From NCBI GenBank assembly GCA_964016885.1, contig OZ024765.1:4836001-4900000 (forward strand): a stretch of DNA of 64,000 nt, written 5' to 3'. This DNA is from Eledone cirrhosa (taxonomy: Eukaryota). A model generated the notes under the pieces. It was not told the origin of the DNA and made no database searches. It worked only from the letters and a program-made list of their open reading frames with translations. Shown here piece after piece: positions 5,511-59,194 of this stretch (its first letter is position 1; the number at the start of each line of letters is the position of its first letter). Made by a program: the position numbers and the translations under genes.

Positions 5511-5678
5511 AGGAAAAGAGTCAGGACCCCGACAGCTGAGCTTCGGCTGTTTCGACAGCTAGATCCGAACTAGCCGTTGGAGTCCTGACTTTTTTCCTAT
5601 TACCCACTCTACTACCCTAAGTATTGAGTACTCTGGTGCGTTATGGTCCACCTGGTTTCTTACCACACTTTCTTTGTT
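5511..5678 (-). mobile_element. TA-embedded hairpin element, family P (copy 1)
   Basis: Homologous to 26720-26924 and 48351-48550 in opposite orientation; partial palindrome plus ~80-nt tail. Confidence 0.75.
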
Positions 5679-5772
5679 ATATATATATAATGAAAAATTG
5701 AACAGGGACAGAACAGAGAGGCAGTACAATAAATGTTTATTAAATTCACGCTCAGGAGAGTGGGGGGCAGGT

Positions 5773-6770
5773 ATATTTATATATATATATATATATTTAT
5801 ATATATATATATTTATATATATATATATATATATTTATATATATATATTTATATATATATATATATTTATATATATATATATATTTATATATATATATAT
5901 ATATATTTATATATATATATATATTTATATATATATATATATTTATATATATATATATATTTATATATATATATATATTTATATATATATATATATTTAT
6001 GTATATATATATATTTATATATATATATATATTTATGTATATATATATATTTATGTATATATATATATTTATGTATATATATATATTTATGTATATATAT
6101 ATATTTATGTATATATATATATTTATGTATATATATATATTTATGTATATATATATATATATATATATATATATATATAATAGAAAAAGAGTCGGGACCC
6201 CGACGGCTGAGCTCCAGCCGTTTCGACTGAGCTCAGCCATCAGGGTCCTAACTCTTTTCCTAAGTGTGGTATATATAAATATATATATATATATATATTT
6301 ATATATATATTTATTTATATATATATTTATTTATATATATATTTATTTATATATATATTTATATTTATATTTATATATATATTGTTATACTTTGGGAGGG
6401 TTATTTTGCCAATAAGAAACATACGCACCAGTTGCTTTCATATTTATATATATATATTTTTATATATATATATATTATATATATATATTTACGTCCGCTT
6501 TTCCCTGCTTGCAAGGGTGGGATGGGAACTGATCCTGGCTTAATTTCTACAGCTGGATGCCCTTCCTAACACCAACCTCATTTACAGTGAGTGCTGGGTG
6601 CTTTTTTGGCGTGGCACCTCCATTTATATATATATATATATATATTTATATATATATATATATATATATATTTATATATATATATATATATATATATATA
6701 TTTATATATATATATATATATATATATTTATATATATATATATATATATATATATATATAGAGAGAGAGA
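5773..6770. repeat. (TA)n/(TTTATATA)n microsatellites interrupted by TE fragments
   Basis: Direct inspection. Includes a family-P hairpin at 6180-6262 and a SINE A tail at 6490-6622 (-). Confidence 0.9.
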
Positions 6771-6771
6771 G

Positions 6772-7043
6772 AGAGATTACAGTAATCAAAGTTCAGTTTA
6801 AGTCATTTATTTGCTTACAATTGTTTCCTCCAAACCGAGGTTTGGATTCTTCGGAGCAACTATTTACTGATCTATAACATACTTGACCTCCTTTTCAACC
6901 CAAGAGACATATAAGACATATAAGGAGGTCAAGTATGTTATAGATCAGTAAATAGTTGCTCCGAAGAATCCAAACCTCGGTTTGGAGGAAACAATTGTAA
7001 GCAAATAAATGACTTAAACTGAACTTTGATTATTGTAATCTCT
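6772..7043. repeat. ~122-bp near-perfect inverted repeat with ~28-nt spacer; each arm has a hammerhead-like motif
   Basis: Arms 6772-6893 and 6922-7043. Confidence 0.9.
6956..7004 (+). ncRNA. Hammerhead-like motif (CCGAAGA variant); mirror copy at 6811-6859 (-)
   Basis: ttgct-CCGAAGA-a-tccaaacc-tc-ggtttgga-g-GAAA-caattg-TA-agcaa: 5-bp stem I, long stem II, palindromic ACAATTGT stem III; U4->C deviation. Confidence 0.6.
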
Positions 7044-7289
7044 ATATAACTGCTCTGTAAAACAACTGATGTTATTACATTGAGCTATTTATCTTACTGG
7101 TAATAGGATAGTAAATAATGACTATCTTTCACTATTTAAGGTTTGTATAAATAATATATTACCATTAAAGGTTTTATTACATACATAACCATAAATAGTA
7201 TCCTTAATACTAATATATTTATATATATATATTATATATATATTTATATATATTTATATATATATATATTTATATATATAAACAATATG

Positions 7290-7578
7290 CCCCCCCCCCC
7301 CACCGCAAGGTGGTCGTGGAGGTGCCACGGCAAAAAAGCACCCAGCCCACACTGTAAAGTGGACGTGTAGGCGCCACGAAAAAGCACCCAGCACTCACTG
7401 TAAATGAGGTTGGTGTTAGGAAGGGCATCCAGCTGTAGAAATCAAGCCAGATCAGTTCCTGTATGAGCAAGGCATGGTCAGCCGACCAGACACTGCCCAC
7501 AACAGGACAACCCGTCTAACCCATGCTAGCGTGGAAGAACGGACGTAAAACGGTGATGATGATGATGATGATGATGAT
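7290..7578 (+). mobile_element. 5'-truncated SINE (family C tail: cgtctaacccatgctagc..ggacgtaaa(GAT)n)
   Basis: Duplicated ~48-bp module, aggaagggcatccagctgtagaaa and a (GAT)n tail. Confidence 0.8.
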
Positions 7579-7766
7579 ATTTATATATATATTTATATAT
7601 AATTTATATATATATATATATATATATATTTATATATATATATATAAATATATATATATATATATATAAATATATATATATATATATATATATATATATA
7701 TATATATATATTTTATATATTTATATATATATATATATATATATATATATATATATATATATATAT

Positions 7767-8022
7767 CCCAGTCACTGAAGAGGTCACAGAATGTGTGACG
7801 AAATAACTTTGACAATATATGAACAATCGTCTGGTTGTGGAACCAACCAACCAACCGGAAATTTATAAATTCCTAAATTTATGATTTAATTTATAATAAA
7901 TTGAAGTGAAAGCAACTGGTGCGTGTGTTTCTTATTGGCAACATGACCCTCCCAAAGTATAACAATATCGGTTTCAACACACGTTTTCAGATAAAGAATC
8001 TTGCTAAACAAATTCAGAACGA
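7767..8022 (+). mobile_element. TA-embedded element, family Q, with hammerhead motif at 7771-7813
   Basis: gtca-CTGAAGA-g-gtcac-agaatgt-gtgac-GAAA-taac-TT-tgac. Homologues at 10915-11160 (+), 56165-56470 (-) and 6381-6443. Confidence 0.75.
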
Positions 8023-56164: not shown

Positions 56165-56470
56165 TTCGTTTCTGAATTTGTTTAGCAAGATTCTTTATCT
56201 GAAAACGTGTGTTGAAACCGATATTGTTATACTTTGGGAGGGTCATGTTGCCAATAAGAAACACATGCACCAGTTGCTTTCACTTCAATTTATTATAAAT
56301 TTTATAAATTTTATAAATTTCCAGTTGGTTGGTTCCCCAACCGGATGGTTGTTCATATATTGTCAGTTCTTTCGTCACACATTCTGTGACCTCTTCAGTG
56401 ACTGGGGATTCTTTTCTTTGCTTTGTGCCTCTCCTTTGTTCTGTCCTACGCCATCTTATGTAAAATGATG
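56165..56470 (-). mobile_element. Family Q element with degenerate hammerhead (56362-56402)
   Basis: Reverse complement of 7767-8022; core and stem II intact, UH site deleted. Confidence 0.75.
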
Positions 56471-57061
56471 AAAATAGTGTTTTGTTTGAAAGCTATCACA
56501 ATGTGAATTGGGCAGTAAATGTTAAAAATATAACAGTTGGGATGTTACATTGTAGTTATTTATAGGTTCTTATATTTCGGAGATATAATCCCTTCATCAA
56601 AAGATTGATAGAAGAAACTAGTTTCAAGCAGTAGAGTGGTTGGTGATTGAGAGGACTCTTGTGTCAGAAACATGACAACCTCCCTAGTGTTGGTGTCGTG
56701 TTAAAGTGCAGGAACATATGTAGGTGAGATGTAGGCCTCTGGCCCCTCAGAGAGGTTAGTCGCCCCACTTCAGTATTGACTCTTCAGTTGTGTTAGAAAA
56801 CCCCTGGCCCCTCAGGGAGGTCAGTCGCCCCACTTCATCCAACCTTTGCTAGCTGGGATAACAGATGTTCGATGATGATGGTGGTGATGATGATGGTGGT
56901 GATGATGATGATGTGATGATGATGATGATGATGATGGTGATGGTGGTGGTGATGGTGGTGATGATGATGGTGATGATGGTGATGATGGTGATGATGGTGA
57001 TGGTTATGATGACGACGTGATGAGGATGATGATAATGACAATCCTAATGACTCGATTATTG

Positions 57062-57180
57062 AAACACTCCAGAACCCCCCCTCCCCTCACCTCACCTGCC
57101 CCTGTATTCTTATTAATGATATGGAATAGTAATAAGAATACAGGGGCAGGTGAGGGGGGGGGGGAGGTTCTGGAGTGTTT
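57062..57180. repeat. ~120-bp hairpin / MITE-like inverted repeat
   Basis: aaacactccagaacc..ctcacctgcccctgtattcttatta / taataagaatacaggggcaggtgag..ggttctggagtgttt. Confidence 0.8.
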
Positions 57181-57472
57181 GATTAATTTTAAAAACACCT
57201 TCTCAAATTACTGACTTAATTAATACTTATCCCTGTAATTTATGCACTATATAGATAATGTCTCAGCTAATGAGACAGCATGTGGCTAATTAGTAGGCTA
57301 AATAACCAGCTAGATCACATGACCTATCACATGACCTGTCACATGTCCTGTCTATCACACCAACTAGAAGGATATTATTTCAATGTTCACATTGTAGACT
57401 TTACAACTTTACTGGCCTCCTATTGGCTGGTTTATCTATTAACTTGTTATCCCATATATATATATATATATA

Positions 57473-57810
57473 TATTAAAATAACAGATTAAAGTTTAAGC
57501 AAAGAATTGCTGCTTTCACCCTTAACTCAGAGCCCGTTAAGAGTGAAAACAGCAATTCTTTGCTTAAACTTTAATCTGTTATTTTAATAAATATTTGCTC
57601 TAGGGTTCTTATATATTTGATATATATTTATCCTTATCGAGCCCTCTTTGGATTTTAGTCTTCTATTTATTTCATTATACGGTTTTATAAATATAGTTTC
57701 CATTTGTTAATATATCGAATATTTACTCCAATAATTTGTTGAGTGCTTTATATCAGTTATAAAAATATTTGCTTGTTGTATCCCAACAAATTAAATAGAA
57801 CTTCTACATA
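57473..57810. mobile_element. TA-embedded element, family T, with ~54-bp fold-back (57473-57589)
   Basis: Homologues at 11740-11890 and 19243-19400; tail shared with 11640-11720 and 48590-48700. Confidence 0.75.
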
Positions 57811-57818
57811 TATATATA

Positions 57819-58350
57819 TCATCATCATCATCATCATCATCAGGTTTAGCGTCCGTGTTCCACGCTTGCATGGGTTTGGACGGGGGTTTTCCCACTTGAG
57901 GCAAGAGTGGTTGTCTTGCTCGCATAGGACTGTCTGGCGGGTTTTCTACAGCTGGATGCCCTTCCTAACACCAACCACATTTACAGTGTGGGGCTGGGAG
58001 GTTTTTACCGTGTTGCCTACACGGCCATATTTACAGCGTGGACTGTCTGGCGGTTTTCTACAGCTGGATGCCCTTCCTAACACCAACCACATTTACAGTG
58101 TGGGGCTGGGAGGTTTTTACCGTGTTGCCTACACGGCCACATTTACAGCGTGGACTGTGTGTTTTTTTTGTCGTGACACCTACACGATCTCATTTGTTTC
58201 GGCCTGGATGTTGTGGCACCAACATAACTTTACATTGAAAGGGGCGGTGTGGATGGGGTGGGGGTGGTGGGACGGGGGGGGTGTGTTTTGATAGAGATGC
58301 CTACTGACTGTAGTAGGTTTTTACTTTGTATTTAGGTAAGGCGGGTCTTA
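57819..58350 (-). mobile_element. SINE C with internal duplication
   Basis: (CAT)n tail, duplicated ggatgcccttcctaacaccaaccacatttacagtgtgggg block and G-rich 5' part. Confidence 0.82.
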
Positions 58351-59194
58351 TATATATATATATATTTTCCTCAGACGAAGAGATACTAATCTCGAGTTAT
58401 CAGGACATGTGAATAGATTAAGGTAAAAAAAAAACCCACTGGTTTTTTGCGTTTTGATTTTTTTCTGTCCAAATCTGCATTGTCGTGGCTTTCCAACATT
58501 GAATTCTCTCTCTCCCTCTCTCTCTCTCCCTCCCTCCCTCCCTCTCTCTACATATATATATGAAGAATTATGGACCCCGACGGCTGAGTTCTGGTTGTTT
58601 CAACAGCTAGATCTGTTCCGATCTCTATATTTATCAGCATATAGAGATATGTGTTCAATCATAGGGGATTATTGAACACATATCTCTATGTATTCCTCTC
58701 TGTATGCTGATATATATATCAAGCCAAAATCAGTTCCTGTAGGAGCAAGGCATGGTCAGCTGACCAGACACTGCCCACAACAGGACAACTCATCTAACCC
58801 ATGCTAGCATGGAAGAACGGACGTAAAATGGTGATGATGATGATATATATAAATCGTTTTGGAAGTCTCAACAATACAGATGGGTAAATCTCTGGGTAAC
58901 AATATTGGTAAACAATGAAGGCTACGTGTTGTCCCTCTCCGAAACATAACTCTTTCTCCTCGGAAAACTCCCAGTCGATGGATATGAAATCCGAAATATA
59001 GGAACTATTAAATCTCTTCCAAGGTAACTCTATCTTGTGCTATTATTTTTAAAACTTTTCCTACATTCCTTTACGTCTCTTTCTATGCTTCCTCTTAAAT
59101 CTCTCTCTCATTACCACCTGATGAGGCTTCCAAAACGACTATTTTTAATATTCCACAATCTTCAAGCAAACTTCAACACTCTCTTATATCGACA

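Follow-up and report, generated by a model that had tools for sequence, protein, structure and literature searches.

Short palindromic insertions in (TA)n repeats of Eledone cirrhosa appear to be head-to-head ends of a Hydra-clade Penelope-like retrotransposon

In a 64,000-nt window of the Eledone cirrhosa genome (GenBank assembly GCA_964016885.1, contig OZ024765.1, positions 4,836,001 to 4,900,000 of the forward strand, numbered here from 1), a palindromic repeat termed family P occurs at five places. All five had been marked in an initial annotation, and all were recovered as relatives of one another (BLAST E 1e-103 to 8e-4 within the window). Each copy is flanked by or embedded in (TA)n or another simple repeat, and three of them carry about 80 extra bases, hereafter the tail, outside the palindrome and on one side only. 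The copy at 48429-48551 is the perfect palindrome it had been taken for, with arms one base longer at each end than first described (61+1+61 instead of 60+1+60). The variants reported as mirrored in both arms (aaccagtaag/cttactggtt and caaaagtatg/catacttttt) were both found, and the centre, or loop, does differ among window copies. A 43-nt arm pattern has 9,407 exact matches in the 3.0-Gb genome in which the window lies, and the reversed control has none. By both measures the copies greatly exceed chance expectation.

A search with the tail alone returned variable centres, some with additional shared sequence. A pattern made from that sequence gave 1,395 matches, and plus/minus pairs of these up to 3.8 kb apart enclose reverse transcriptase (RT) and GIY-YIG frames. 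At one locus, units of 3,542-3,543 nt with open frames of 784-786 amino acids (aa) form a tandem array in which the tail continues into the next unit. One natural unit (L160:3077-6619, minus strand) serves as our reference, with the ATG at 92, GAAAC at 3422, the arm end at 3463-3464 (site A) and the tail end at 3543 (site B); the loci sampled, numbered with the prefix L, are the first listed places of contig C1. From the first methionine, the open reading frame (ORF) encodes 718-719 aa with YRDD at 348 and VIY...YIG at 591, a single ORF with RT followed by a GIY-YIG endonuclease, as in endonuclease-positive (EN+) Penelope-like elements (PLEs). Partial tandems of pseudo-long terminal repeats (pLTRs), an inverted 5′-truncated copy and a tail at one end, likewise characteristic of EN+ PLEs, were all seen. 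The features of the Hydra clade are also present: RWR at 37 (RWK-type) and DKT at 117 in the RT N-terminus, CNCPDRSIC at 572 in the linker (CxCx5C), CNLC at 670, CKH at 698, and no CCHH, with a single Cys within the GIY-YIG core. Of 61,028 candidates from the protein search, 103 were scored, and many of these have open frames of about 784 aa. The protein has 2,186 homologues, mostly unnamed, and among its atlas neighbours GIY-YIG and RVT_1 occur in some of the members. A Pfam search of five ORF fragments gave no significant family (GIY-YIG at E 0.069 on a fragment, under the cut-off) and a PDB sequence search gave no match, so Hydra-clade membership rests on motifs and architecture.

Judged by sequence, the window elements are short head-to-head insertions of the pLTR ends of a Hydra-clade PLE in (TA)n, hereafter stubs, and their parent, 3.54 kb in length, has an intact RT/GIY-YIG ORF. 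The family is a new member of that clade, whose layout of an inverted 5′-truncated copy and a one-sided tail is already published. An ordinary miniature inverted-repeat transposable element (MITE) with fixed terminal inverted repeats and a transposase, which the initial annotation had named as the contrary case, does not match the 80-nt extension at one end, the variable centres and the RT-coding parent. Helitron, DIRS and Crypton readings were dropped on discovery of the RT/GIY-YIG ORF. A non-LTR retrozyme was likewise rejected, as the stubs have the 3′ hammerhead half only and the tandem unit is the coding 3.54-kb element. At L161 (3610-3814, minus strand), the frame is open for 68 codons before the first Met, across the tail and into the hammerhead 3′ half.

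The outer ends of the insertions were scored in loci L173-L272, which were chosen by the arm pattern and not by the centre. Exactly one 80-nt tail was present in 66 of 68 close head-to-head pairs, far from what independent choice would give (p 2e-17), and the outer ends of these 66 pairs fall nearly all at 3464 (site A) and 3543 (site B). In the full set, which includes 60 loci picked for likeness to the window copy or its tail, the one-tail rule holds in 148 of 155 cases, and long insertions and long arrays mostly obey it. TA-rich sequence flanks 64 of the 68 pairs on both sides and four on one side, as well as 30 of 30 near-identical copies, in keeping with the (TA)n targeting of the Hydra clade; sites A and B both fall at TA, in agreement with the target. 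Of the 66 pairs, 32 have a tail-less arm that extends further upstream (much further in L122, L211 and L076) and 26 a tail arm that does so, while the two are equal in eight; in six pairs the arms hardly overlap. Because a copy-back of the tail arm would be no longer than the tail arm itself, and a copy-back of the tail-less arm would supply no tail, both arms must derive from RNA, barring later deletion.

The window copies display the same organization (Table 1). The tail and adjoining arm of the 48350 copy are identical to the parent at 138 of 140 positions, and this arm contains the hammerhead 3′ half (GAAAC, stem III, GUC and the stem I 3′ strand). In the copy at 5511-5679 the tail-less arm extends further than the tail arm, and the copy at 6181-6262 is without a full tail after its second arm, where a few bases resemble the reversed tail end. 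Junctions differ from copy to copy, bearing out the earlier proposal that the inversion is made anew at each insertion. Just past the solo arm lies a further inverted repeat (58641-58689).

Table 1. Parts of the family P copies in the window, with the matching positions of the reference unit
Feature	Positions	Strand	Remarks
80-nt tail, youngest copy	48350..48428	-	Outer end is site B (reference 3543), joined to (TA)n
Tail-bearing arm, youngest copy	48429..48489	-	End of the pLTR, running from site A to the stop base at reference 3404
Untemplated centre base	48490..48490	.	G before the first base of the tail-less arm, equal to an extra C on its cDNA
Tail-less arm, youngest copy	48491..48551	+	Reference 3404-3464, ends at site A, joined to (TA)n; 61/61 identical to parent
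Tail and arm, older-subfamily copy	26721..26860	-	Reference 3403-3542; 121/140
Tail-less arm, older-subfamily copy	26866..26925	+	Reference 3405-3464, after a 5-nt junction insert; 52/60
Tail-less arm, third-subfamily copy	5511..5572	-	Reaches reference 3403; 50/62
Shorter arm and tail, third-subfamily copy	5572..5679	+	Starts near reference 3438; 93/106
Tail-less arm, decayed third-subfamily copy	6181..6227	-	To reference 3419; 41/48
Second arm, decayed third-subfamily copy	6228..6262	+	Reference 3431-3463; 27/33
Solo decayed tail-less arm	58558..58615	-	Reference 3408-3464; 42/57

Other junctions carry traces of repair. Those of L067, L068, L081, L215 and L226 contain templated insertions copied from arm sequence nearby, which we take to be typical of polymerase-theta-type end joining. 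Hairpin-type repair of a break is suggested at the junctions of L032, L047, L051 and L054 (around 1400-1500), where half elements run into fold-back palindromes of unrelated DNA.

At their inner ends the arms share a common stop. Of 128 young arms, 19 read through; the other 109 are short and end without exception at 3400-3421, with 43 ending at 3404-3405. The edge is abrupt on its upstream side and trails off by trimming downstream, and it falls at the same A in three subfamilies with differing loops. Summed contig depth in run X1, whose contigs are of unrecorded kind and possibly from the same sample, drops about 11-fold across the stop base (3.56 million to 0.32 million). At L214 (1339-2496), the tail arm halts at 3405, jumps to 819 of the next unit, reads on for about 960 nt across the unit junction, halts again at 3407 and is there joined to the tail-less arm. 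Given that the stop is unchanged for 60-nt arms, 140-nt arms, solo arms and L214 after its read-through, it is set by template position and not by length.

Beyond the last templated base, the arms tend to carry a C. We counted by hand the first 50 of 521 sites at which both arms end at A3404 with at most three bases between them: 23 centres are C/G, 11 CWG, two CG, one CC, nine nothing, three A/T and one TTT, so that a C follows the last templated base in 37 of the 50. Read-through would give A/T, and single-base centres favour C/G over A/T by 23 to 3 (p 9e-5). The second, older subfamily, set as a prediction, agreed in a hand count of the first 50 of its 277 centres (24 C/G, seven CWG, four other C-starting, four nothing, two A/T and nine others), with C in 35 and a single-base ratio of 24 to 2 (p 1e-5). 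The parent has T where the window copy has G at its centre (48490). The identical C/G centre is shared by 240 sites; of 20 such centres, ten belong to the tail arm, four to the tail-less arm and six are unclassified, and they occur in three arm variants. Since the same centre arises on either arm and in several variants, recurrent events are indicated, not one master copy.

Upstream of the stop, TATTTAAA begins at -29 and TTAGTC spans the stop base; we take the former to be TATA-like and the latter initiator-like. For other PLEs, pLTR promoters that are TATA/initiator-like or internal are described in the consulted portions of PMC3846280 and PMC2377424, and those of PMC4859970 interpret an untemplated 5′ G in L1 and SVA as a copied cap. 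We infer that A3404 is a transcription start and that the stubs are paired strong-stop complementary DNAs (cDNAs), in which case the centre base at 48490 would be a copy of the RNA cap.

The stop base falls inside the predicted stem II of a variant hammerhead. The sequence next to the fold point, GAAACGGC, which had been likened to the 3′ half of a hammerhead, is indeed the 3′ half of a hammerhead-shaped motif in the fold of the parent pLTR, whose minimum-free-energy structure is a three-way junction comprising an ACCCC/GGGGU stem I, UUGAGAA, a long stem II, GAAAC, a stem III with a palindromic loop, and GUC. Among 45 long arms, the core is UUGANAA, a U3-A8 variant, in 41 and has C at position 3 in four, with A8 in all; position 7 is G in nine, A in 16, C in 19 and T in one, with neighbours nearly fixed. 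In the hammerhead structure alignment, 86% of cells are paired, and Rfam returned no hammerhead match in the window, nor in the parent pLTR at E up to 10. The unfolded CUGANGA parent that had been anticipated was not borne out, as, of 41 genome matches to that motif, the 30 inspected proved to be mixed junctions, flanks or centre variants. In an intermediate subfamily (L149, L145 and L215), C3 stands opposite A8 in the core, a mismatch that should impair cleavage, yet this subfamily was amplified.

The suggestion that the turn occurs at a ribozyme stem II therefore stands as to place, inside stem II, but not as to cause: the inverted arm copies the 3′ strand of stem II and not its 5′ strand, so the stem is not a snap-back primer, and an RNA 5′ end at this position explains the turn better. 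Cleavage by the hammerhead was rejected as the cause of the stop, because the arms run about 40 nt beyond the GUC site. A handful of tail arms do stop near GUC (3438-3446), though not at a single base. With a start inside stem II, the RNA 5′ end would carry only half of the ribozyme.

We consider it probable that the stubs arise as paired strong-stop products, in which both target strands prime at two sites 80 nt apart on the RNA and the resulting cDNAs run to its capped 5′ end and are joined. The parent, the target, the two fixed outer ends (one per side), the common inner stop, the untemplated C and the copy-specific junctions were observed directly. In the proposed sequence of steps, an internal promoter would start the RNA at A3404, and a probably dimeric RT/endonuclease would cut both (TA)n strands and prime at site A on one and at site B on the other. 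Where the sites nearest the RNA 5′ end are used, the cDNAs would be only about 60 and 140 nt long and would end with the copied cap; the strong-stop DNA of LTR elements is an analogue of such stubs. The two cDNA ends would then be trimmed and joined, or each cDNA would serve as template for the other, thereby also providing the second strand. Long arms and tandem arrays, which are rarer, may come from multimeric or circular RNAs that read through 3404. Arms would match because the same source RNA or locus served for both, and would mutate independently afterwards.

Several observations weigh against this account. The predicted hammerhead fold is not more stable than shuffled sequences (z 0.40), and its covariation test does not rise above shuffles. 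Of the short arms, 14 of 109 match 1-4 nt past 3404. The third subfamily keeps the same edge, but 33 of its first 50 centres lack the extra C and pair an arm at +1 with an arm at +2; where both arms are at +1, five of six centres do have C. The CWG centres (11/50 and 7/50) are perfect hairpins and could be sealed-hairpin products, and later central deletion could explain some of the arm asymmetry. Furthermore, among the long copies examined, few full units start near 3404 (L140 at 3418, L131 at 3410), and most read far past it, so that a second class of template, multimeric or circular, must be assumed. Near-identical five-unit arrays are compatible with such templates without proving them. 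At the 5′ end of one five-unit array (L161, 9170-10000), a 55-nt piece of the ORF (reference 1615-1672) is repeated in tandem at least 14 times, as though RT had slipped or rolled on a small circle.

The most serious competitor, which we nevertheless regard as unlikely, keeps the priming of both strands and replaces the transcript start with a structural or protein block in stem II, at which RT pauses, adds a C by terminal transferase activity and dissociates. In its favour, the stop falls within the 3′ strand of the inner hairpin predicted for stem II, long arms continue past the stop, and the third subfamily mostly lacks the extra C. A block is at odds with an edge that is sharp upstream, trimmed downstream and fixed at one A despite different loops, with initiator- and TATA-like motifs at the expected spacing, and with the weakness of the fold (the z score given above).

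Snap-back or self-priming, in which a single cDNA would fold back to be copied and the variation would arise as the centre later erodes, strikes us as distinctly improbable. Self-priming on an antisense template has been proposed for PLEs generally, in the part of PMC3846280 consulted. Perfect palindromes, CWG centres, a few mirrored private variants (four unique, ten rare) and the host-DNA fold-back palindromes beside half elements, which show that such repair occurs, speak for it. In its simple form, which the initial annotation had raised, it fails on the longer reach of the tail-less arm in nearly half of the 66 pairs, on the six pairs that hardly overlap yet share the stop site, at which solo arms stop too, and on the strand of stem II that is copied; a single fixed end on each side, at sites that match TA, is in keeping with two priming events.

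The reading in which the 200-nt palindromes are a non-autonomous MITE-like master, or one like a short interspersed nuclear element (SINE), copied whole and with subfamilies fixed per master, is largely refuted, and we give it very little credence. It draws on 40 scored copies that share 98-100% identity with the window copy along its full 201 nt and on the 240 sites with the same C/G centre. These sites are a small share of the 9,407 arms, the same centre occurs in both orientations and several subfamilies, and junctions differ in nearly all copies not chosen by centre; moreover, the two ends do not form terminal inverted repeats, and the palindromes consist of pLTR sequence from an element that encodes RT.

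The similarity of paired arms bears on how they were made. In 128 one-tailed pairs, 43 of them older, all 43 older copies have an arm closer to its own partner (5.2% divergence) than to the mean other copy (12.0%), while the most similar arm from any other copy lies nearer again, at 3.0% on average. The claim that arms match better within copies than between them thus holds against the average copy and not against the closest foreign arm. Over the outer 33 nt in the window, own-arm identity exceeds all others for the copies at 26720 (30 versus at most 27) and 48351 (33 versus at most 27), and reaches only 26 for 5511, whose right arm is about 2 nt out of register in this comparison, and 28 for 6180; the left arms of the latter two match each other at 29. 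Arm similarity is mostly subfamily structure. Unmirrored private variants and closer foreign arms indicate that the arms share a source at insertion and then decay independently. Homogenization of the arms after insertion by gene conversion or hairpin repair, the other route suggested earlier, is barely credible: four unique variants among the 128 copies are mirrored, against 35 private variants (found in no other copy) that are not, rare variants are mirrored in ten cases and unmirrored in 84, all five single changes within the palindromes of 30 near-identical copies are one-sided, and the 5.2% divergence indicates that the arms of old copies diverge as fast as tails.

The window also holds repeats of other families. 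A palindrome with 67-bp arms at 55995-56129 carries a complete-looking CUGAUGA...GAAAC...GUA hammerhead in each arm, and its family also flanks L294 and L296. Minimal hammerhead-like motifs at 4616 (plus strand) and at 20089, 29760 and 19561 (minus strand) belong to two additional repeat families, and stem III of one is a palindromic AACGTT. The element at 25702-25794, with 41-bp terminal inverted repeats in TA, presumably resembles a Tc1/mariner-type MITE. A tRNA-like Rfam match (30.9 bits) at 18887-18950 is probably a SINE head, and another inverted repeat lies at 57083-57162.

More broadly, and only tentatively, we propose that PLEs integrate by paired, two-ended reverse transcription, in which a dimer primes both strands at two RNA sites and the cDNAs meet and copy each other, with the stubs recording a capped RNA 5′ end inside the hammerhead. 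If so, a monomeric transcript would contain only half of the ribozyme, its productive start signal would be confined to the front end, multimeric or ribozyme-closed circular RNA would be required for full-length copies, and one scheme would cover the need of PLEs for partial tandems, tails and head-to-head inversions. The route to inverted copies and tails is stated to be unsettled in the portions of PMC8557442 and PMC11167929 covered. A fixed, cap-marked stop or twin priming for PLEs was not found in the literature searched, which covered few subscription papers. What family P would add is a mechanistic record, the strict pairing of two start sites together with an apparently cap-marked common stop. 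Thousands of natural events yield base-exact predictions (two start sites, one per strand, the RNA 5′ end and a cap-derived C) that make the inversion and tail step of PLEs directly testable. An origin of the stubs by abortive retrotransposition would also bear on repeat annotation, since abundant short foldback repeats in animal genomes can be such products and not MITEs.

The comparisons that follow refer to the covered portions of the cited papers. Hydra-clade PLEs, which include the octopus member Hydra-1_Obim, are described with (TA)n targeting, inverted 5′-truncated copies and one-sided tails (PMC8557442). The present family agrees with their published description in its single ORF of RT and C-terminal GIY-YIG, in RWR, DKT, CxCx5C, CxxC and CxH without CCHH, and in its (TA)n target, partial tandems, inverted 5′-truncated copy and tail at one end. 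It differs in the length of the unit (3.54 kb, against generally less than 3 kb), in the tail (80 nt, against 30-40 nt given for PLEs), in a hammerhead with a U3-A8 core and long stem II where theirs is canonical, and in the excess of short stubs over long copies, about 6:1 in our sample (PMC8557442). Schistosoma Cercyon PLEs share the U3-A8 core in the pLTR, the G10.1-C11.1 pair, a palindromic loop 3 and opposite-strand pairs (PMC4209133); compared with their minimal hammerhead, stem III here has 5 bp and stem II about 50 nt with a putative start site.

In vitro, the Poseidon_Ac PLE protein, a predicted dimer, cuts and extends both strands and begins reverse transcription at two internal sites that delimit the tail (PMC11167929). 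Its two RT starts bounding the tail, AT-rich target and hammerhead just upstream are as in family P. Its start sites show no strand difference, whereas here each side takes one site in 66 of 68 pairs, and the portion of that account covered does not treat head-to-head joining or a fixed stop. Head-to-head inverted pLTRs, an optional tail, microhomology junctions and a pLTR promoter are likewise described for the Penelope elements of Adineta vaga (PMC3846280) and D. virilis (PMC2377424); palindromes there are ascribed to antisense self-priming (PMC3846280), whereas our data favour two sense-templated cDNAs. L1 twin priming offers a further parallel, in that the second target end primes a second cDNA, the two products undergo end joining and the RNA 5′ end is recognizable by an untemplated G (PMC11702581, PMC4859970). 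In L1, one RNA is split into non-overlapping inverted parts at variable sites (PMC11702581), whereas in family P both sites are fixed and the arms usually overlap fully, resulting in a palindrome.

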